Made by a program: the position numbers and the translations under genes
Shown: positions 5,501 through 63,979 of the stretch, piece after piece
How positions within the stretch are numbered: position 1 is the first letter of the stretch
Layout: the number at the start of each line of letters is the position of its first letter
The notes under the pieces: model-generated
What the model was told of the DNA's origin: nothing
Seen by the model: only the letters and a program-made list of their open reading frames with translations
The model's database searches: none
DNA from: an uncultured virus (IMG/VR IMGVR_UViG_3300025138_000031)
Taxonomy: Duplodnaviria > Heunggongvirae > Uroviricota > Caudoviricetes
DNA length: 64,000 bases
IMG/VR virus record: IMGVR_UViG_3300025138_000031
Reading direction: 5' to 3' (one strand)

Positions 5501-7825
5501 ATGGCAATTAATTTTCTAACAGGGTTAAATATAGATGGAAACATTGATTTAAACTCTAATCAATTAAAAGAGGTTAGGATAGATAACATTGGATCAGCTC
5601 CATCTGGTTCCCTGGGAAGAATCTATTATGACACAACATCAAATAAACTTAGACTTTATAATGGAGGCTGGGTTGATATTGATACAGGAACAGATGGAGA
5701 CACTACTTATGATTTATCAGGTGTTGGTTCTTCAAATGGAACAGCAGGTGTAAGGCTTGCAGGATCAGATGGAACTAATGATGATGTAATTATTACAGGT
5801 GCAGGTACAGTAGGAGTAACAAGAAGTGGTAATACACTTACAGTTACAGGTACTGACTCAGCAGCAGGTACAGTAACTAGTGTATCTGGTGGAACTGGTA
5901 TATCAATTTCAGGTAATGCTTCTGTAACACCTACAGTTAACATTGATACTACAGGTTCTGACAATGCAATTTTAGTATTAAGTGCTGCAACTCCTGTAGG
6001 AGCTGATACAATGTGGTTTTCTGATGCAAATGACAGTACACTTAAAAAGTCTTTATTATCTAATTTTCCAGGATTTGGAAAAGATGGTACTGTTATTTCT
6101 GTAGCTACAGGAGCTGGTTTGACAGGTGGTACAATTACTTCATCAGGAACATTAGCAGTAGATTATGCTGGTTCAGATAACGTTATATTAGCTGCTGGTG
6201 ATGGAACATCTATAACACTTGCTGCAAGTGATAAGGTTCTATTTTCTGATGCAACTGATAGTAACGCTAAATTTGCAAATTTATCTCAAGTAGCAAGTTA
6301 TATTAATGCAGGAGCAGGTTCTGTAACTTCAGTAGGTGTGAGTGGTGGTTCAACAGGATTCTCATTCAGTAACTCTCCAATTACTTCTAGTGGTACTATG
6401 ACAATGTCAGGTACATTAGATGTAGATAATGGTGGTACTGGACTTGCAAGTTATACAACAGGAGATATATTATATGCTTCTGGTGGATCAACATTAGCTA
6501 AACTAGCTATAGGTACAGCAGGACAAGTATTAAAAGTAGCATCTGGAATTCCTAGTTGGGCAGCAGATTCTAATTCTGGCGGTACAGTAACAAGTATTAC
6601 TCCAGCAGCAGATTCAGGTTCAGGTACAGCAATTACTTCTTCAGGAGTGTTGACTTTATCTTCAAGTAGTGGACTTATAACAACAAGTGTAGCAGGTACA
6701 ACTTGGAAGATTAGTACTACAGCAACAAATAATACAGGTACTGTAACAAGTGTAACTGCAGGAGCAGGTATGACACAAACAGGTACCTCAACTGTTAATC
6801 CTACTTTAAATGTAGTTCCAGCAGCAGGTGGTGGTATATCTGTAGCAGTAGATAGTGTATCTGTAGATGCTACAGTTGTTAGAACATCAGGTGCTCAATC
6901 AATAGCAGGAACAAAAACATTTAGTAGTAATATAGTAGTACCAATTACTCCTAGTATATCTACAAATGCTGCATCTAAGAGTTATGTTGATTCTACATTT
7001 GCAGGATCTGGAGCTTTAATCTTCCAAGGAGGATATAATGCAGCAACAAACACACCAGATCTAGATAACACGCCTTCTGCAGCAATTAAACAAGGTTGGA
7101 CATATGCAGTAACAAATGCAGGTTCTTTCTTTAGTGAAACAGTTGAAGATGGGGATTTACTTATTGCAGAATCAGACTCTCCAACAGCATTATCTGATTG
7201 GACAGTTGTTCAGAATAATATAGGTATTGCAACAGCAGGATCTACAGATGGAGGTACAACAAAAGGTATTTCAGGATTTGATAGTGCAAACTTTACAGTA
7301 ACAGCAAACGGTTGGGCACAAATTAAAGCAGGTGGTATTAGTGATGCTGAGTTAGCAAGTACATTTAATAAGATTATTGGTACTGACTCAGATGTAAATA
7401 CAAGTGGTGTTACAGTAATAGATACTATTAACTTAACTGATGGTGTTGTTACTTCTGCTATAGGAACAAGAGCATTACCAACTACTTCTCAAACTAACTT
7501 AGGTGTGGTTGAAATGGCTGATGCTTCTGAAGTAACAGCAGGTACTATAACTAATAAAGCTATATCACCAGCTACGTTGCTAGGTTCTCATCAAGCAGAA
7601 AGCTATTCAGTAGCATTTCCAAGTTCTACAACAAATAGTTTTAGTGTATCAGCAGGAACACATAAATTAGGTACAGGACCATTTATTATTCAAACTTATG
7701 GTAAAGGGGGTAGTCAAATATTTATGGATGTTACTGTTAATCCATCAACTGGTGAAGTTGATTTAGATTGGACAACAAATGCAAGTGCTAATGATTACAC
7801 TTTAGTAATGAGTAGGGTAAGATAA
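5501..7825 (+). CDS. Fibre protein 1 (774 aa)
   Basis: Gly/Ser/Thr-rich; repeated GTVTSV, AASKSYVD, GG.NA.TNTP knob, THKLG-type C-terminal domain. Confidence 0.8.
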   Translation: MAINFLTGLNIDGNIDLNSNQLKEVRIDNIGSAPSGSLGRIYYDTTSNKLRLYNGGWVDIDTGTDGDTTYDLSGVGSSNGTAGVRLAGSDGTNDDVIITGAGTVGVTRSGNTLTVTGTDSAAGTVTSVSGGTGISISGNASVTPTVNIDTTGSDNAILVLSAATPVGADTMWFSDANDSTLKKSLLSNFPGFGKDGTVISVATGAGLTGGTITSSGTLAVDYAGSDNVILAAGDGTSITLAASDKVLFSDATDSNAKFANLSQVASYINAGAGSVTSVGVSGGSTGFSFSNSPITSSGTMTMSGTLDVDNGGTGLASYTTGDILYASGGSTLAKLAIGTAGQVLKVASGIPSWAADSNSGGTVTSITPAADSGSGTAITSSGVLTLSSSSGLITTSVAGTTWKISTTATNNTGTVTSVTAGAGMTQTGTSTVNPTLNVVPAAGGGISVAVDSVSVDATVVRTSGAQSIAGTKTFSSNIVVPITPSISTNAASKSYVDSTFAGSGALIFQGGYNAATNTPDLDNTPSAAIKQGWTYAVTNAGSFFSETVEDGDLLIAESDSPTALSDWTVVQNNIGIATAGSTDGGTTKGISGFDSANFTVTANGWAQIKAGGISDAELASTFNKIIGTDSDVNTSGVTVIDTINLTDGVVTSAIGTRALPTTSQTNLGVVEMADASEVTAGTITNKAISPATLLGSHQAESYSVAFPSSTTNSFSVSAGTHKLGTGPFIIQTYGKGGSQIFMDVTVNPSTGEVDLDWTTNASANDYTLVMSRVR

Positions 7826-13649: not shown

Positions 13650-15869
13650 ATGATTCCAACAAATTCAAGCGGCACCACAAATGGGTGTGATAATATATCA
13701 TCTAATTGTGTAGTATGGCAAGGTCCTGATATTGCATGTATAAATTTATGTAGTGGAGATACTATTAGTGAAGTAACATCTAAAATTGCTACTAAGGTAT
13801 GTGACATAATTACAAATGGAGTATCAGCTAATCCAAGTTTAGCAGGATTAGATCTTACATGTTTAAATATCAGTGGCACTACCCCAACAACTTTAGTTCC
13901 TGTTTTACAGGAAATGGTAAATGCTATTTGTTCAAATAGTGGTACTACTAGAAGTTCTTTAACTCCTAGATCTCAAGTACAAGATGATTTACCAACTATG
14001 ACATTACCTGCATGTTTGCAGTATAATGATGCTAATGGTAACCCAGTAACAGAATTACGTTTAGATTTATTTGCATCACTTATTGCAAATCAAGTATGTA
14101 CTAACTTAGCTAGTATTAACTTAATTAATTCTACACTTACAAGTTACAGTAATAGACTAGATGTATTAGAAGCATGTGTATTACCATGTTCAGGTGCAGT
14201 AACTGAAGTACAAATTATACCAACTTGCGTTAGTAATGTTGGTAATTTAACAAATGTATCTATTGTTGTTTCAGCATTAGAGAGTGCATATTGCACATTA
14301 GTAGGAGGAACTGGTACAGTTGCTCAAATGAATTTAGCAATAGCACAAACTTCAATAACTAGTGCTTCTCCAACAAGAAATAATTCAGGTGCTACATATA
14401 GTAGCATAACTGGTTGGCAAACATCTGCAACTACATTAGCTCAATCATTACAAAATGCTTGGGTAGTGATAGATGATTTATATGCAGCAGTGGGAGATAT
14501 ACAAACAAATTGTTGTTCAAGCGGCTGTGATTCAGTAATCTTTGGATACAGCACATCTACAACAGTAGGAGCTAATGGGCTTTTAAATTCTGTTAACTTT
14601 AATTTTATTGGATCAACTATACCAAGTTCATTTAATGATAGTGCAGGATTTAGTAAACTTACTTTAACAGATGCATTAGGGGCTTCATTAACACAAGTAG
14701 TCAGCGTTTCATCTTTACAAAATAATTCAAATGGTTTTGACTTTTCAACTGGTAGTTTAAATACTCAACAAGACTTATCAATACAAGTTCAATTTAGTGT
14801 TACTAATGGTGTAGATACTTGTGAGGCAACTCAAAGTAATACAGTACCAGGTGTAGTACCATGCCCAACAGTAAGTATGACAGCAATAACTGGTACAGAA
14901 GCAACAGTAAACTTTACTAACCCAATAGGAACTACTGCAGTTTATGTACTTGATGTATTAGATGCATCAAATGCAGTAATTGCTACACATACAGTAAATA
15001 ATCCATCAGCTAGTGTATCATATCAATTTACAGGCTTGACTCCTGGTACTCCTTATGTTATAAGAGTAACAGTACAATATGGTGGTGCAACAAAAGTATG
15101 CCCATCAAATGCATTTTCTACAAGTTCAGGTGCAGCACCATGTACAAATGGAATGGATGTAGCATTTATAATTGACTATACATCAAGTATGTCTGGTGAA
15201 ATTGAAGCAATTAAAACAGGTGTAGCAAGTATTATAAATACTATTAACACTGCTTCAGGAGCTAATAACTATAGATTAGGATTAGTTACAGCAGATGAGA
15301 ATAATACTGGAACACCAACTTATGCTACATCAACTGATTACTTAGCATTACCATCAGCACAAAGAATTATAAACACAGGATCTAATAATCATTATCAAAT
15401 TATTACAGCATGGGAAATGTTCCAAGATAATAATGATACAACATTTACTGCACAATTAAATAAACTTAATAGTGGAACAGCTCCATCTGGTGTACCAATG
15501 GGACAAGGAGATGGTTTACCAGAACCAACAGATATGGCACTTGGTCAAGTTATTGAATCTAGCAATTTCTTAAATGCATTTAGAAATAATGTAGCTAAGT
15601 ATGCTATAATTATAACAGATGATGCAGCAGGAGGAGATGATGATACTTTCAACTCAGTAGACTATGCAAGAATTGGAAGTTTAACAACTACAGCATTAAA
15701 CAATGGAATTAAAGTATTTGTACTTGGTGCAGGTGTTAATAAAACTTATAATGGTGGTTCAGGTATAGTATATCCATGGAGAGAATTATCAACTAATACT
15801 GGAGGTAACTGGAATGTAAGTGAATCTCCAACGGCAATACAGAATGAAATAATTGCTGGTTGCTCTTAA
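13650..15869 (+). CDS. Cys-rich structural protein with FN3 and C-terminal VWA domain
   Basis: FTGLTPGTPYVIRV (FN3); DVAFIIDYTSSM MIDAS-like motif at about 15174, RLGLVT, IIITDD, IKVFVLG (VWA). Confidence 0.8.
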   Translation: MIPTNSSGTTNGCDNISSNCVVWQGPDIACINLCSGDTISEVTSKIATKVCDIITNGVSANPSLAGLDLTCLNISGTTPTTLVPVLQEMVNAICSNSGTTRSSLTPRSQVQDDLPTMTLPACLQYNDANGNPVTELRLDLFASLIANQVCTNLASINLINSTLTSYSNRLDVLEACVLPCSGAVTEVQIIPTCVSNVGNLTNVSIVVSALESAYCTLVGGTGTVAQMNLAIAQTSITSASPTRNNSGATYSSITGWQTSATTLAQSLQNAWVVIDDLYAAVGDIQTNCCSSGCDSVIFGYSTSTTVGANGLLNSVNFNFIGSTIPSSFNDSAGFSKLTLTDALGASLTQVVSVSSLQNNSNGFDFSTGSLNTQQDLSIQVQFSVTNGVDTCEATQSNTVPGVVPCPTVSMTAITGTEATVNFTNPIGTTAVYVLDVLDASNAVIATHTVNNPSASVSYQFTGLTPGTPYVIRVTVQYGGATKVCPSNAFSTSSGAAPCTNGMDVAFIIDYTSSMSGEIEAIKTGVASIINTINTASGANNYRLGLVTADENNTGTPTYATSTDYLALPSAQRIINTGSNNHYQIITAWEMFQDNNDTTFTAQLNKLNSGTAPSGVPMGQGDGLPEPTDMALGQVIESSNFLNAFRNNVAKYAIIITDDAAGGDDDTFNSVDYARIGSLTTTALNNGIKVFVLGAGVNKTYNGGSGIVYPWRELSTNTGGNWNVSESPTAIQNEIIAGCS

Positions 15870-18434: not shown

Positions 18435-19109
18435 ATGGCAACAATTGGAGAAACAATATCTAGAATTAGAGGACAAGTTAAAGCAGAGGTTCAAGATGCT
18501 TTTGTCACTGATAGATATATTTACAGCCTAATAGAAAAACATGCACAGTTTTTAATGAGAAGACAAGACTATGCAAATAAATTATTAAAGTTTAATTCTG
18601 TTTGGAAAACATTACCATATGTAGAACTTATTGACGTAGATAAAGTAGAAGCACATTGTGCAGGTATTACAAGTGGATGTACAATAAAACGTACAAAACA
18701 CAAACTACCCTCAATGTTTGAAGGATATTGGGGACCCCTTATCCGTACTATTGGATCAATAGATGGTTCATTAGAACTACAGGCAACTCAACCAGGCACA
18801 TATACATCAATGACTAAATCATCATCTTTTAAGTATAATGATACATTGTACTTTTGGTGGTTAGATGGATATATATACTGCCCAAATATTGCATGGGATG
18901 CATTAAAAGTAGAAGGAGTATTTGACTCAGACATTACAGCTTGGGATTGTGATACAGAAAACAATTGTACACCAAGATATAAACAAGAAATATATATACC
19001 TGAAGCATTGTTTGCAGAAATTGAACAACAGGTGGTTGCTACTATGATGAATACATTGAAGGTACCTTCAGAAGACTCTGACAATAAACGTAACTTAATG
19101 AGAAATTAA
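18435..19109 (+). CDS. Tail ring/adaptor protein
   Basis: Helical N-terminus, beta middle (WWLDGYIY), IYIPEALFAEI C-terminal helix; synteny. Confidence 0.6.
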   Translation: MATIGETISRIRGQVKAEVQDAFVTDRYIYSLIEKHAQFLMRRQDYANKLLKFNSVWKTLPYVELIDVDKVEAHCAGITSGCTIKRTKHKLPSMFEGYWGPLIRTIGSIDGSLELQATQPGTYTSMTKSSSFKYNDTLYFWWLDGYIYCPNIAWDALKVEGVFDSDITAWDCDTENNCTPRYKQEIYIPEALFAEIEQQVVATMMNTLKVPSEDSDNKRNLMRN

Positions 19110-19120
19110 AATAAAAAATC

Positions 19121-20098
19121 ATGGGAGTATCACAAAAATATAGAACGTTCAATCAATTAATGGAAGATGTATCTATTGACTTTTCTACATATGCTTTAGA
19201 AGGTCTTATAGAACCTGCACAACTTATTAAAGTAGCAACCAGAGTTAATTATGATTTAGGTCTTAAAATACATAGAACAAAAGAAGTAGTATTAGATGTA
19301 GAGCACGGTAAAACTCAAATGCCAATGGATTTTCAATATTTGAATTATGCATTTAGATGTGGCTCTTATTCTATAAATAATACTATGCCATCAGGAACAC
19401 ATGTTGAAACATTTAATGATGTACCTTATGTACCTGCCCCAGGAGAAATGTCCCCATGCAGTAAGGATGATACATGTAAAGATGTTTGTGTAATAAAAAC
19501 ATGTGATGATAAAAATAGCTATCAACTTGTACAAAGAGTGGGTCCAAGTAACTTTAGAACATTTACAGATTGGACTGAGTTAAGAATACAAGGGGTAAAT
19601 GATGATGTTTGTTTTTGTCCTCAACTAGGTGCTCAAGCACTAGATATTGCAGAACTTAAAGATGGTTTCTTATTAACAACATTTAAAACAGGAAAAGTAT
19701 ATTTAAGTTATCAAGGAGCTATGGAAAATGCTGCAGGTGAATTATTGGTATTAGATCAACCTTATTGTAATGAATATTATGAGTATGCTATAAAACAAAG
19801 AATACTAGAGAATATGGTATGGAATGGAGAAAATGTTTCAAATCAGTTACAGCTTGTAGAAACAAGATTACGTGCTGCTAGAAATAATGCATTAGGTTTT
19901 GTTAATACACCAAACTTTGCAGAAATGAAAAAGATGTGGGAAGTAAATAGAAGAGCACAATATCATAATTATTATAATATGTTTTTAAGTTATGCACCAA
20001 TCAACCCAAGAGTAGTATCAGGACCAAGAACACCATCTGCTAGTGCAGCAGCTAGTGCAGCAGCTTGTGCAACTACAAGTAGTAGTACAGTTAAATAA
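19121..20098 (+). CDS. Tail tubular/ring protein (P22 gp4-like role)
   Basis: F.TGKVYLSY.G..D..Y.EY motifs; immediately upstream of the muzzle gene. Confidence 0.6.
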   Translation: MGVSQKYRTFNQLMEDVSIDFSTYALEGLIEPAQLIKVATRVNYDLGLKIHRTKEVVLDVEHGKTQMPMDFQYLNYAFRCGSYSINNTMPSGTHVETFNDVPYVPAPGEMSPCSKDDTCKDVCVIKTCDDKNSYQLVQRVGPSNFRTFTDWTELRIQGVNDDVCFCPQLGAQALDIAELKDGFLLTTFKTGKVYLSYQGAMENAAGELLVLDQPYCNEYYEYAIKQRILENMVWNGENVSNQLQLVETRLRAARNNALGFVNTPNFAEMKKMWEVNRRAQYHNYYNMFLSYAPINPRVVSGPRTPSASAAASAAACATTSSSTVK

Positions 20099-60262: not shown

Positions 60263-60315
60263 GGTTTACACGTCAAATTTGCAGTGAAATAATTTTTAAG
60301 GATCATTTAGATTGT

Positions 60316-60350
60316 GTATATTATATTATAAACCAGCAGTACATAGTAAA
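60316..60350 (+). promoter_or_regulatory. GTATATTA motif plus AGCAGTACAT leader element
   Basis: Matches 13592-13640. Confidence 0.5.
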
Positions 60351-60366
60351 CAATTAATTTATATAT

Positions 60367-61638
60367 ATGAAAAAATGTATACATCTGCTGGTCATCTTTA
60401 TTCTATTTTATACACCCCTTCAAGCACAAATAGATACTCTTCCAGAAGATCAAATAATTAAACTTAAAAAAGGTTGGGAAAAAAAACAATTCTTTAAGGG
60501 TCTTTATGAAGACTTTTTAAAGTATGGTACTATATATGGTGCTGGTGATATAAACAACTCTATAGAAGCTGATGAGTCAACTTATTTTGTTAGAACAGGA
60601 GATGGGAATGGTTTATATGATATTCCTGTTGTTGTAGATAATACACCTGAATATCCATTTGATTATAGAATAGGTTTTGGTATTAGAAAACTAGCAAGGT
60701 TTAGTTATGAAAGAAAACCTAGAAACTTTTATGATGGTACTGAAGAGCAGTTAGCATTTAGTGCACCAACATCTGCATTAGCAGGTTTAGAATATCAATT
60801 ACATTGGGAAAAGGAACGTTGGAGAGGGGAAGACTTCAGGAATCATAGGTTCTTTATAAAGCACACAGGCAAACATCACATATTTAAAGTTGAGTCAAGA
60901 GAAGTAGGAAAGATAAACCTAGCTTATGAGTCAGCAGAAGCAAGATTAAGGTTACCTATAGGAGAAAAGTTTAGCATTTCTGCGGGTGCAATCTACCGTA
61001 CTCACTCCCGTGCATATGGTTATAATCCAATTGAGATCTGGTTAAATGAAACAGTGATGTATACTGACCCAAATACAGGTGAACAGTTTGAATATCCAGC
61101 AAACCCTTGGTATACATTAGGATTTGAGTATGGTTATACTGATCATTTTACTACATACACAGATGCTAATACAGGTGAGGAAATGCAAGATTGGATTTGG
61201 AAAGATGAAGATGGAAATATTGTAGCTTATTCTGATATTGACTTTAGAGAAACTATATTTACCCAGCTAATGAACCGCTTTAATAGTGAGGCATTGTCAG
61301 AGATAGATGCATTTGGTGAGATAGCACCAATAGTAGGAATGGATTTTTATCATTATAAAAGAAATTTCTGGTTACATGCATATGCAAATTATATACTACC
61401 ATATCACAGATACTTAAAAGGAGATGAAGTTGTTTCTTATTTAAATAGAAATAACTGGGGTAAAGGAGGTTTGAGAGAAGATTCCAAGCTAGAGCAATGG
61501 GCAGACTATTCTTTTGGTGCTAATTTAGGTTGGAAGATTAATAAAAATTTAGGAGTGTTTGTTGAAGGAGAGTACTCTAAGATGTGGGACAGCCAACTGT
61601 TCCAATCAACAGTAGGATTAAATTATACATTTAAGTAA
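60367..61638 (+). CDS. Secreted outer-membrane beta-barrel-like protein
   Basis: Signal peptide MKK..LQA|Q, alternating aromatic beta-strands, C-terminal QSTVGLNYTFK beta-signal. Confidence 0.7.
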   Translation: MKKCIHLLVIFILFYTPLQAQIDTLPEDQIIKLKKGWEKKQFFKGLYEDFLKYGTIYGAGDINNSIEADESTYFVRTGDGNGLYDIPVVVDNTPEYPFDYRIGFGIRKLARFSYERKPRNFYDGTEEQLAFSAPTSALAGLEYQLHWEKERWRGEDFRNHRFFIKHTGKHHIFKVESREVGKINLAYESAEARLRLPIGEKFSISAGAIYRTHSRAYGYNPIEIWLNETVMYTDPNTGEQFEYPANPWYTLGFEYGYTDHFTTYTDANTGEEMQDWIWKDEDGNIVAYSDIDFRETIFTQLMNRFNSEALSEIDAFGEIAPIVGMDFYHYKRNFWLHAYANYILPYHRYLKGDEVVSYLNRNNWGKGGLREDSKLEQWADYSFGANLGWKINKNLGVFVEGEYSKMWDSQLFQSTVGLNYTFK

Positions 61639-61651
61639 AAAAAATAAAACA

Positions 61652-61939
61652 ATGGCAGAAGTACCTCAGATTGGAGAACAAACAAAAGTAACTTTAGATC
61701 TTAAAACAATTGGAATGATAGTGGGATTTGTAATTTCATTATCAACCATGTGGTTTACATTAAAGGCAGATATAGCTCAGGCTATGGAAAACCCCAAACC
61801 ACCAATAGAAAGGGTAGAATATGATTTAAAAGATGAACTTGTAAGACAGACCATAATGGAAACCCAGGAAGACGTGGAGATGTTGCTTCAGAAGTTTGAA
61901 AAAATGGAAGAAAGAATCTATGAGTTAACCAAAAAATAA
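61652..61939 (+). CDS. Single-pass membrane protein with coiled coil
   Basis: TM segment IGMIVGFVISLSTMWFTL followed by an acidic helix. Confidence 0.6.
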   Translation: MAEVPQIGEQTKVTLDLKTIGMIVGFVISLSTMWFTLKADIAQAMENPKPPIERVEYDLKDELVRQTIMETQEDVEMLLQKFEKMEERIYELTKK

Positions 61940-61943
61940 TATT

Positions 61944-62357
61944 ATGAAAAAGGTTTTGTTGTTTATTCTAGCATTGTTTATTACCTCAACTATACAAGGT
62001 CAACAGTGGGTTAGTGATGATAGCTTTACTGATGAAATAAACGGACATTCAGGTGATCAAGATGAAGATATAGTTATTATAGAGTTTTGGGCAGAATTTA
62101 ATAAAGACAATGCTTTTGTAGAGTGGAAGAAGGTAGATGACCTTGACGGTGTAAAATATTTAAGAGCTAACATAGCCCTTTGCCCATCATTAAAAAAAGA
62201 ATTTAGAATTAGAATGGTGCCCACTATATTAATTTTTTCAGGAGGAGACGCATTTATAAAGTTCAAAGCTAAAGCCGGTCTAGACCTCCTATGCCCTGTA
62301 GACTATCCTAGGATGGTCAGAGCAATAGAGGTTGTTAGACGAGAAGCTTCTTACTAG
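61944..62357 (+). CDS. Exported thioredoxin-fold protein lacking CxxC
   Basis: Signal peptide; VIIEFWAEFN at the WCxxC position; IRMVPTILIF cis-Pro motif. Confidence 0.75.
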   Translation: MKKVLLFILALFITSTIQGQQWVSDDSFTDEINGHSGDQDEDIVIIEFWAEFNKDNAFVEWKKVDDLDGVKYLRANIALCPSLKKEFRIRMVPTILIFSGGDAFIKFKAKAGLDLLCPVDYPRMVRAIEVVRREASY

Positions 62358-63979
62358 CCTTCACAGCTAGAGCATTCCAAAATATTTCTTGCAAAATCTT
62401 GAGCACTACTTTTACTAAATTGATAGTATAAAGTTTTTACTCCTTCCTCCCAAGCATATAAATACAATTGATTAATCTGTTTAGCAGATACTGATGGGTC
62501 AATCATTAGGTTTAGTGACTGTGACTGATCAATATACTTTTGTCTTTGTGCTGCCTGCAAAACAAGTTCTTTAGGTGTAATCTCAACAAAAGATTTAAAT
62601 ACAGCTTTGGTAGGAAAGTTTAAGTGTTGGACACTACCATCTTTTTTTAAGATAGACTTCCAGGTCTTATCTGTATTAAGATCATACTTATCAAGCTCTG
62701 CCTCTAGAAAAGGGTTTTTATACACTGTTTTAGATTTAGCAAGATCCTTAATAAAATAATTAGACTTGATAGGCTCTATACCCATAGACACAGCACCATG
62801 TATAAAAGAACTAGACTTTGTAGGAGCTATAGCCATAAGAGTAGTATTAGCATAACCTTCTCTCAAAGATCTGTATCCCCATGCACCATGCAACTTTCTT
62901 GATGCAATTTCACTTCTATCTTTTAGAGTCCTAAATATTTCTGAGTTAAGTTGTTTAGCTTCAAGTGACTCAAACTCTATTAACTTAGATTGAAATAAAG
63001 AATGGTATCCTAACACACCTAAGCCAATTGCTCTATGTTTCTCAGCAAAATTAAAGGCTCTCTTCATCCCAGGCATTGTCTCTGCTTTAATAATAAACTC
63101 ATCCATTACTGCATTTAAAAAGTATACATATGTTTGTATAGCATCTGTTTCTTTTATTTCATCCCAATGTAAAAGGTTAATAGATCCTAAACAACAAACA
63201 AAAGAGTTATAACTATCTGTTGGTAATTGTATTTCAGAACATAGGTTAGATGCTGTAATATCTAAACCTAGATCTTTATATGGAGAATTGTTATTAGAAT
63301 TATCTTTAAACATTATATAAGGATAACCAAACTCAGATCTACGTTGTATGATTTTAGCCCACACTTTACGTTTTTTTCTGTCTCCTTCTTTCATTTCTTC
63401 CATCCACTTATCTGTGACAGTAATACCATACTGTAGGTTCTGTATAGGATTGCCTTCAGTACCTATGTCTAGAAACTCTTCTATGTCAGCATGCTCTACA
63501 GGTAAGTACACTGCACATGCACCACGTCTTGCCTCAGACTGTTTACAAACATCTACAACTGTATCATACATTCTAGCATAATGTATAGGGCCATCAGCAT
63601 GACCACCTGTAGATATTTCACTTCCTCTAGGTCTAATGTTTCCAAGGTATGCACTTGTTCCTCCACCATACTTAGACATCATTCCAATTTCACGGCCTGC
63701 ATTAAGTATACTATCTAAGTTATCATCTATGTTAGAACCATAACAACTAATAGGTAGTCCTTTCTGCTTGCCAAAGTTAATCCATACAGGAGTAGACAGA
63801 GAGAAAAAACCTCTTGCCATATAATCCTCAAACTTTTCAGCAAAGCCTTTGATGTTTAAATATTTTTCTGCCTTGATGGCAATGTCTTTAATTCTTTGTT
63901 CAGGTGTTTCTGTTATATATCCTCTTGATAAGAAGGTTCTGCTATCATCATTTAGCCAGTAATACTTTTTATATTCCAT
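62354..63979 (-). CDS. nrdA: Class I ribonucleotide reductase alpha subunit, short, no ATP-cone
   Basis: PISCY, SNLCSEI (NxCxE), CCLGSINL, APTKSSS, KTLYY, C-terminal CSSC. Confidence 0.95.
   Translation of the reverse strand: MEYKKYYWLNDDSRTFLSRGYITETPEQRIKDIAIKAEKYLNIKGFAEKFEDYMARGFFSLSTPVWINFGKQKGLPISCYGSNIDDNLDSILNAGREIGMMSKYGGGTSAYLGNIRPRGSEISTGGHADGPIHYARMYDTVVDVCKQSEARRGACAVYLPVEHADIEEFLDIGTEGNPIQNLQYGITVTDKWMEEMKEGDRKKRKVWAKIIQRRSEFGYPYIMFKDNSNNNSPYKDLGLDITASNLCSEIQLPTDSYNSFVCCLGSINLLHWDEIKETDAIQTYVYFLNAVMDEFIIKAETMPGMKRAFNFAEKHRAIGLGVLGYHSLFQSKLIEFESLEAKQLNSEIFRTLKDRSEIASRKLHGAWGYRSLREGYANTTLMAIAPTKSSSFIHGAVSMGIEPIKSNYFIKDLAKSKTVYKNPFLEAELDKYDLNTDKTWKSILKKDGSVQHLNFPTKAVFKSFVEITPKELVLQAAQRQKYIDQSQSLNLMIDPSVSAKQINQLYLYAWEEGVKTLYYQFSKSSAQDFARNILECSSCEG

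Follow-up and report, generated by a model that had tools for sequence, protein, structure and literature searches.

A co-inherited trio of predicted envelope proteins in crAss-like phages and its possible role at the outer-membrane step of host lysis

What do three tightly spaced phage genes do when all of their products are predicted to reach the envelope of the host? This question is raised by a locus of an uncultured marine virus (IMG/VR record IMGVR_UViG_3300025138_000031; 71,826 bases, CheckV completeness 63%), of which bases 1-64000, hereafter the window, were analysed. Co-oriented open reading frames (ORFs) for proteins of 423, 95 and 137 amino acids (p423, p95 and p137; Table 1) follow each other there with gaps of 13 nt and 4 nt; their tight spacing had been pointed out in an earlier note made from the sequence of the window. 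We found that the three genes form a strictly co-inherited trio restricted to phage contigs, and that in relatives of the source phage they are linked to lysis genes, a linkage that is new beyond the earlier note. Because the adjacency to lysis genes outlasts replacement of the lysin, because the three-way linkage is strict and because the products are predicted to lie in three compartments, we propose, with a probability of about 0.4, that the trio acts at the outer-membrane step of host lysis by a mechanism not described so far. The way in which phages of Bacteroidota exit through the outer membrane is largely unknown, and almost no lysis factor of this kind is known for the phages of this phylum.

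Co-inheritance of the trio and its linkage to lysis genes

By using p423 as a query, we fetched 80 IMG/VR loci in which p423 is 57-92% identical. Since these metagenomic loci are related to one another and partly redundant, the counts given here and below are not counts of independent events. First, tblastn placed p95 and p137 in this order after p423 in 79 of the 80 loci, the exception being a locus that ends inside the trio. Second, 79 further loci were found via p95, and 71 of them hold the full trio; in the other 8, the gene not found would lie beyond the end of the contig or locus, the cut being at most 900 nt upstream or at most 362 nt downstream. Third, a divergent full-length relative gave access to 80 more loci, of a subfamily only 32% identical in p423, and the full trio was present within ±6 kb in 62 of them. 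The p95 and p137 genes, which often overlap by 4 nt in relatives, are always adjacent in this subfamily, often with overlapping stop and start codons, and p423 either directly precedes the pair or follows it at a distance of up to ~4.7 kb. A permuted but contiguous order, p95-p137-p423, was found on one contig (L081:7270-10615) of a metagenome-assembled genome (MAG). The neighbours outside the trio change freely between loci, and identity in the giant protein next to it, where this can be detected at all, is 36-86%. The co-conservation on which the earlier note had staked its module was thus recovered in all three sets of loci.

We found ~2,300 barrel homologues and an estimated 1,200 stored viral stretches with p95 patterns, and the family profile retrieved only 339 relatives among 1.84 billion cluster representatives (E ≤ 1e-3). 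Among 185,579 species genomes we obtained five matches, all on MAG contigs with inconsistent taxon labels, and these bins probably contain misplaced phage contigs: the contig with the permuted order is binned as Maricaulis, and other carriers as Woesearchaeota or Arcobacter. In 50,697 GenBank phage records, from which close neighbours of the window's own record may be missing, no match was found for p423 or p137 (tblastn, E ≤ 1e-3), for p95 (tblastn, E ≤ 1) or for the whole locus (blastn). None of the three proteins matches a known spanin or porin family in Pfam, PHROGs or NCBIfam, and no description of the trio was found in the main texts of the papers searched.

To describe the surroundings of the trio, the flanking ORFs were clustered and representatives were scanned against protein families. 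Among 58 distinct full-trio loci, 40 contain an endolysin-like gene or a holin that shares the strand of the trio and lies no more than 3 kb downstream of it; 39 of these have an endolysin-like gene (4 by DUF5675 alone) and 17 a holin. The genes involved are of several kinds: the endolysins combine PG_binding_1 with Amidase_2, or belong to Peptidase_M15_3/phrog_894 or to phrog_3000/phrog_33083, and the holins belong to Phage_holin_4_1 (22.4 bits for a cut-off of 22.2) or to phrog_3427. In several loci the endolysin starts only 27-30 nt after p137. In the divergent subfamily, the phrog_3427 holin (E ~1e-31) was present in 5 of 8 scanned loci and an endolysin in 3 of 8. The permuted MAG contig shows the gapless order p95-p137-p423, a transmembrane-helix protein, a PHROG 'lipoprotein', an M15 endolysin and a holin. 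Since the adjacency survives the replacement of the lysis genes themselves, we argue for a functional link between the trio and lysis. The earlier note had left superinfection exclusion, nutrient uptake and non-canonical lysis side by side; the neighbourhoods of the relatives favour lysis over the other two.

Some lineages have additional ORFs inside or beside the trio. In one of them (L054:6634-6819, L056 and L057), an ORF of 61 aa is inserted between p423 and p95; it combines a lipobox (LLFGC) with a transmembrane span at the C-terminus, the architecture of a unimolecular spanin (u-spanin). A scan of all loci with a crude in-house u-spanin pattern gave this as the only credible lineage and detected none of the trio members. 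Other extra ORFs, of 101-249 aa, occur in L039 (7185-7766), L058 (5248-5997), L004, L010, L013, L026 and L059; they have no Pfam or PHROG family, and several are predicted lipoproteins (LFFGC, LAFSC). The divergent subfamily has, beside or inside the trio, an endonuclease of 122 aa (phrog_452, E ~1e-35) that is probably of the homing type (L110:7632-7997, L118:7035-7400 and L129:7313-7678).

Predicted structure and location of the three proteins

Signal peptides and topology were judged by simple in-house rules, the one for signal peptides being an h-region followed by a small residue and Gln. Both p423 and p137 begin with MKK, a hydrophobic stretch and a small residue directly before Gln, with no lipobox Cys at +1. 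Over both subfamilies, this arrangement was found in 122 of 123 barrels and in 109 of 110 p137 sequences. At the predicted cleavage sites, Gln21 of p423 is invariant in 54/54 aligned relatives and Gln20 of p137 in 50/50, in agreement with the earlier remark that both signal peptides appear to be cut before Gln. In two studies, a Gln directly after the signal peptide is given as a rule specific to Bacteroidota (PMC5837995, PMC10653852), which points to a member of this phylum as the host. A Flavobacteriaceae label is carried by two of the five MAG contigs with the trio.

For p423, an AlphaFold2 model of moderate confidence built from 54 relatives (predicted local distance difference test score, pLDDT, 72; predicted TM-score, pTM, 0.64) consists nearly entirely of long beta hairpins and predicts an outer-membrane beta-barrel of 14-16 strands. 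The top Foldseek matches in the PDB are all outer-membrane barrels (NanC, Vibrio OmpT, BamA, NalP, OmpG and FapF), with E-values from 7e-5 and low TM-scores of 0.2-0.3. An exhaustive VIA-align comparison ranked CymA first (Z 11.9), followed by TamA (10.9), Tsx (10.6) and CdiB (10.5), and then barrels only. The barrel that had been proposed for this protein therefore agrees with the model and with both structure searches, and p423 is predicted to be an exported outer-membrane beta-barrel. A search of the model against BFVD also returned A0A516LKJ4, an unnamed viral protein of 342 aa (E 2e-26, TM-scores 0.57/0.69, 22% identity), which on the predicted fold is a still more distant member of the p423 family.

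Several parts of p423 stand out by their conservation. Residues 110-137 are among the best conserved and yet unmodelled (pLDDT 31), and the strands at 140-180 are unusually charged. Most residues common to both subfamilies are G, Y, R, K or E, with D326, H337, H347 and D380 in addition. At the C-terminus (..VGLNYTFK), G417 and N419 never vary, and T421 and F422 hardly do. For the beta-signal noticed earlier, a G-x-x-Y-x-F pattern is present, but in the subfamily of the window a K or R follows the aromatic residue, which is not the last one; over 123 sequences the final residue is K in 36, R in 33, F in 34 and L in 20. The duplication reported in the acidic loop is real, with YTDPNTGE at 232-239 and YTDANTGE at 264-271, but local, the first copy lying in an indel-rich loop and being limited to the closest relatives.

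Family searches gave no name to p423. No Pfam, PHROG or NCBIfam family was matched, apart from one chance DEP match at E ≤ 1 in Pfam; the Lom/Ail family model gave no match either, p423 having 423 aa and members of that family about 170-200 aa. The p423 profile retrieved among PDB sequences only chance matches to TIMP-2 (E 0.9-2). In a protein atlas, p423 falls in viral clusters of its own, the nearest named entries being Lsa36, DUF6850 and Chlam_OMP (0.92-0.93), which are mere leads. An activity as outer-membrane lipase or deacylase was also considered: no catalytic motif was recognised among the conserved residues, and the enzyme barrels LpxR (Z 7.7) and OmpT (Z 7.1) scored below plain channels in VIA-align, so that p423 as an outer-membrane enzyme is neither supported nor excluded.

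The p95 protein begins with a short tail that holds a conserved strand-like motif; a single transmembrane span, a hinge rich in Pro and an acidic helix follow, the helix being strongly conserved. The hydrophobic span covers about residues 19-36 (mean Kyte-Doolittle value of 2.04 over 18 residues), and the C-terminal domain has a mean net charge of -6.2. With this one conserved span and the conserved C-terminal helix, the membrane-anchored protein of the earlier description is borne out. The charges flanking the span favour an N-in/C-out orientation in 76% of 105 sequences, a weak prediction of topology. Only weak family matches were obtained (phrog_1009, E 1.2e-3; Josephin, 0.062; PspC, 0.0084) in Pfam, PHROGs and NCBIfam, and the p95 profile found in the PDB coiled-coil-like matches alone (E ≥ 0.2). 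In six loci (L048, L050, L051, L052, L055 and L065), 12 extra residues in the N-terminal tail include DxDGDG, a motif like a calcium loop (GIDVDGDGKPDF); if this tail were periplasmic, the topology proposed here for p95 would be wrong.

The fold of p137 is the clearest of the three. Pfam Thioredoxin (PF00085) is matched at E 1e-4 with 22.7 bits, below the cut-off of 23.5, and the family profile matches 161 thioredoxin sequences of the PDB at E ≤ 0.01 (best 1.5e-10). The AlphaFold2 model (pLDDT 86.5) has the order beta-alpha-beta-alpha-beta-alpha-beta-beta-alpha, and its top Foldseek match among 357 at E ≤ 1e-3 is the thioredoxin 3hhv (TM-score 0.84, root-mean-square deviation 2.2 Å). In the alignment, FWAEFN faces FWAPWCGPC of thioredoxin, the site of WCGPC being EFNKDN, and the divergent subfamily has FNAxWN at the active-site position. 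No CxxC was seen in the family among 57 relatives and 15 divergent-subfamily sequences inspected. The cis-proline of the loop before strand 3 is kept, with P93 invariant and T94 nearly so, aligned to the iPT of thioredoxin, and 109 of 110 sequences end in F or Y. Profile, model and structure search together support the redox-dead thioredoxin fold suggested before, in which FWAEFN replaces WCxxC; the two other cysteines that had been pointed out exist as Cys80 and Cys117, though they are not conserved. We are thus confident of the predicted fold of p137, that of a thioredoxin lacking the redox cysteines, in a protein predicted to be exported by Sec.

Readings of the trio and comparison with known systems

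If the trio acts in lysis, its products could be arranged as follows. At a late stage of infection, Sec would export p423, signal peptidase I would remove its signal, and the beta-barrel assembly machinery (BAM) of the host would insert it in the outer membrane. The p95 protein would span the inner membrane in N-in/C-out orientation, so that its acidic helix would reach into the periplasm. Between p95 and p423, p137 would act as an adaptor or escort without redox function; candidate contacts are its own invariant aromatic C-terminus and the conserved, unmodelled residues 110-137 of p423. After the removal of the wall by holin and endolysin, this assembly, which we infer to be one trans-envelope complex, would destabilise or open the outer membrane and so do the job that spanins do in phages of Proteobacteria.

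The closest comparison is with the two-component spanins such as lambda Rz/Rz1. An i-spanin is defined, in a survey of spanins, by an N-terminal transmembrane span and a helical periplasmic domain (PMC6139136). Like such a pair, the trio includes a protein with an N-terminal span and a helical part, p95, and a predicted outer-membrane partner, p423; in most relatives its genes belong to the lysis cassette or adjoin it, and the same job is inferred. In contrast to them, the outer-membrane partner is a predicted integral barrel with a signal of the signal-peptidase-I type instead of a small lipoprotein, the periplasmic part of p95 has only ~57 residues, the trio has neither conserved periplasmic cysteines nor similarity to spanin models, and a third, soluble protein with a thioredoxin fold is obligatory. 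Nor does any trio protein join a lipobox to a C-terminal transmembrane span, as the unimolecular spanin T1 gp11 does. Since there is no lipoprotein, lipobox or family match, and since a third protein is obligatory, the trio is not a spanin by membership, but it may work like one. According to a 2025 survey, Bacteroidetes phages use only unimolecular spanins (PMC12596118), and the spanin survey found none in 91 of 677 phages of Gram-negative hosts, or 13% (PMC6139136). A review of Crassvirales describes the late structural and lysis genes as one transcriptional unit (PMC10136315), and the place of the trio after giant cargo genes is consistent with such a unit.

Several observations weigh against a role in lysis. 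In the source phage itself the trio adjoins no lysis gene, the nearest one being a holin ~5 kb beyond it, behind an inverted pair of ribonucleotide reductase (RNR) genes, nrdA-nrdB, and the layout of trio, inverted RNR pair and holin recurs in 5/5 near-complete relatives. A tblastn search of the source record with five lysin or holin representatives matched the holin alone and no endolysin, and the phrog_894 endolysin was found in 0 of 5 related near-complete genomes; phrog_3000 gave no match either, but as its control matched nowhere this negative carries no weight. Furthermore, 18 of the 58 distinct loci have no recognised lysis gene within 3 kb, and in the divergent subfamily large ORFs of 630-994 aa stand between the trio and the lysis genes. 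Adjacency alone is weak, because accessory envelope genes, such as bor of lambda, also flank lysis cassettes. As for the proteins, known i-spanins are longer than the ~57 residues of the p95 periplasmic part, the topology of p95 is weakly predicted, and p423, at 57-92% identity, is conserved far better than is usual for spanins. Some loci hold a transmembrane-helix protein, a PHROG 'lipoprotein' or a u-spanin-like ORF, any of which could carry out the outer-membrane step by itself.

Superinfection exclusion or receptor masking is the competitor that fares best, and we nevertheless regard it as unlikely. The barrel would bind or replace the receptor, and p95 and p137 would block later genome entry. 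All three proteins are indeed envelope-directed, T4 Imm in the inner membrane and Sp in the periplasm provide a precedent for exclusion in several compartments, and the habit of accessory envelope genes to adjoin lysis cassettes, mentioned above for lambda bor, would suit this reading as well. A 2026 preprint on huge phages reports 1,603 phage outer-membrane barrels and cites the binding of lambda Lom to LamB, which blocks superinfection (10.64898/2026.10.24.761521). Like Lom and these barrels, p423 comes from a phage barrel gene, and its product would be inserted by the host in its own outer membrane. Unlike Lom, which has eight strands and stands alone, p423 is about twice as large, has no Pfam family and is locked to two partners; moreover, it belongs to crAss-like phages of ~100 kb and not to huge phages. 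The text of the preprint contains 0 occurrences of thioredoxin (10.64898/2026.10.24.761521). Exclusion genes are usually sporadic and fast-evolving, whereas the trio is complete in all loci with enough flank and is kept across subfamilies only 32% identical, with p423 at 57-92% identity next to a giant protein at 36-86%. No PADLOC defence model matches the trio, and the adjacency to the lysin persists through swaps of the lysin family.

A regulator of lysis, with p95 and p137 as antiholin or periplasmic timing sensor and p423 as the outer-membrane input, would share the same lysis-cassette context, and we judge it quite improbable. In size and architecture p95 resembles T4 RI, a protein of ~97 aa in which a membrane signal at the N-terminus precedes a helical domain in the periplasm, and some loci have separate candidates for the outer-membrane step. 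On the other hand, no similarity to RI or antiholin families was found in Pfam, PHROGs or NCBIfam, the best-conserved member is a barrel of 400 aa, odd for a timing device, and the holin families beside the trio differ by lineage although antiholins usually pair with one holin.

We see even less reason to take p423 for an uptake channel, that is a substrate-specific pore, for nucleosides for example, that would feed phage DNA synthesis with p137 as periplasmic binder. The best matches of p423 include two specific channels, CymA (Z 11.9) and Tsx (Z 10.6), its strands hold many invariant charged residues as a specific lumen does, and RNR genes flank the trio, upstream or downstream, in 31 of 80 loci. 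Yet barrels of any function match at such Z-scores (TamA, CdiB and NalP alike), p95 with its single span is no transporter, no inner-membrane permease is linked, and the position of the RNR genes varies (upstream, downstream or inverted) while lysis genes directly follow the trio. A thioredoxin without cysteines is not known to bind solutes.

Equally improbable is the absence of any complex, the three being independent envelope proteins that share an operon or p137 a private chaperone bringing the barrel to BAM: thioredoxin folds can be chaperones without redox chemistry, and in the divergent subfamily the distance between p423 and the p95-p137 pair reaches ~4.7 kb, but the three co-occur without exception among loci with enough flank and stay together through permutation of the gene order and down to 32% identity.

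Coming back to the outer-membrane step of lysis, other phages offer precedents for the parts that are proposed here. Thioredoxin of E. coli (TrxA) is a non-redox subunit of the T7 DNA polymerase, and thioredoxin also takes part in the assembly of f1. As in T7, the thioredoxin fold would be used as a protein-binding part, and the Foldseek matches of p137 include 1t7p_B and 1t8e_B. The difference is that TrxA is borrowed from the host, redox-competent and cytoplasmic, whereas p137 is phage-encoded and exported, with both cysteines lost family-wide. Disruption of the outer layer independently of spanins is known from the mycobacteriophage esterase LysB and from the 'disruptin' phiKT gp28. The former is a soluble lipolytic enzyme and the latter a small cationic peptide, neither of them a membrane barrel with partners. 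That the trio is a third route of breaching the outer membrane beside spanins and disruptin peptides, made of a BAM-inserted barrel, a Cys-free thioredoxin adaptor and an inner-membrane helix and used by marine crAss-like phages of Bacteroidota and phages related to them, is a tentative and rather doubtful extension of the lysis proposal.

Abundant in the sea and specific to phages, the trio has stayed fixed over deep divergence. Should it supply the missing step of lysis, it would add a new mechanism to a textbook process, give the annotation of lysis cassettes a marker that applies to thousands of uncultured phages, marine and crAss-like, and be a case in which a virus builds on the barrel-assembly machinery of its host and on a redox-dead thioredoxin as structural elements. 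Should it serve exclusion or uptake instead, it would still be an undescribed and obligatory module spanning three compartments.

The source phage, the upstream spacer and neighbouring genes

The source virus was assigned from its ring proteins and giant cargo ORFs. Pfam CrAss_Ring_2 is matched at 18435-19106 of the window with 65.1 bits (cut-off 27), and CrAss_Ring_1 at 19121-20095 with 26.6 bits, slightly under its cut-off of 27; because of these matches, the virus is classified, from sequence, as a crAss-like phage. The ring genes are followed at 20113-60262 by seven consecutive giant ORFs of 2057, 1829, 892, 948, 1085, 4578 and 1945 aa. The first of them matches 'virion structural protein' PHROGs (phrog_37948, 7.9e-46), the second contains a PG_binding_1 stretch, and the last has a weak PD-(D/E)XK match (E 0.005); the lone ORF of 4578 aa is exceptional for a phage of ~110 kb. 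Upstream, a protein of 739 aa (13650-15869) with fn3 and the start of a VWA domain and one of 774 aa (5501-7825) with a BppL_N baseplate motif (9e-10) are both likely tail or receptor-binding parts. A search for tRNA genes found none.

Table 1. The trio, its downstream neighbours and the two conserved upstream blocks (window coordinates; "record" marks positions in the full virus record)
Feature	Position	Strand	Description
Upstream block 1, GTCAAATTTGCAG	60272-60284	+	Aligned in 8/9 clade relatives having the same spacer
Upstream block 2, TATTATATTATAAACC	60319-60334	+	Candidate regulatory/promoter element, ~33 nt before the p423 start codon
p423 gene	60367-61638	+	ORF, 423 aa
p95 gene	61652-61939	+	ORF, 95 aa
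p137 gene	61944-62357	+	ORF, 137 aa
Ribonucleotide reductase large subunit	62354-63979	-	phrog_84, 3e-146
Ribonucleotide reductase small subunit (nrdB)	record 63990-64967	-	Part of the inverted nrdA-nrdB pair
Holin of the source phage	record 67372-67782		phrog_3427, 4.8e-31; GTA_holin_3TM, 25.2 bits (cut-off 24.8)

A spacer of 104 nt separates the last giant ORF from the p423 gene, and the promoter motif of the earlier note corresponds to block 2 in it. Two blocks of this spacer are conserved upstream of p423. Block 2 is kept before the barrel gene in nine clade relatives while the bases around it vary; it is the sole exact match in the window, its matches with two mismatches are at chance (5 for 5.1 expected), and it is unique in the whole record at one mismatch or less. 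For block 1, the other matches with one mismatch in the record all lie inside genes. The promoter motif is confirmed only in part: a sigma-70 scan gave 11 sites compared with 15.2 in shuffled sequences (standard deviation 3.9) and hence no excess; a terminator scan was at chance level as well. A Bacteroidota-type -33/-7 promoter pair, looked for by eye, was rejected, TTTG and TAATTTTT being only 8 nt apart. In metatranscriptomes, short contigs of the p423 gene alone were found (151-206 nt, 95-100% alike) in 3 runs of 3 studies; as they give no level, strand or timing and may come from DNA carry-over, they are no evidence on expression.

At the other end of the trio, the stop codon of p137 overlaps by 4 nt that of the convergent gene for the RNR large subunit. 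The inverted RNR pair stands between trio and holin in the clade of the source phage, and upstream of the trio on the same strand in other lineages. Since this pair is placed differently between lineages, the trio lies at a recombination-prone module border. In relatives, other genes near the trio encode a homologue of ribosomal protein S21 (L054:8752-8949; 27.4 bits for a cut-off of 27), a sigma-70/extracytoplasmic-function-type factor (L035:5436-5999; Sigma70_r2, 4.5e-18) and a PAP2 lipid phosphatase (L021:7457-8101; 3.6e-10).

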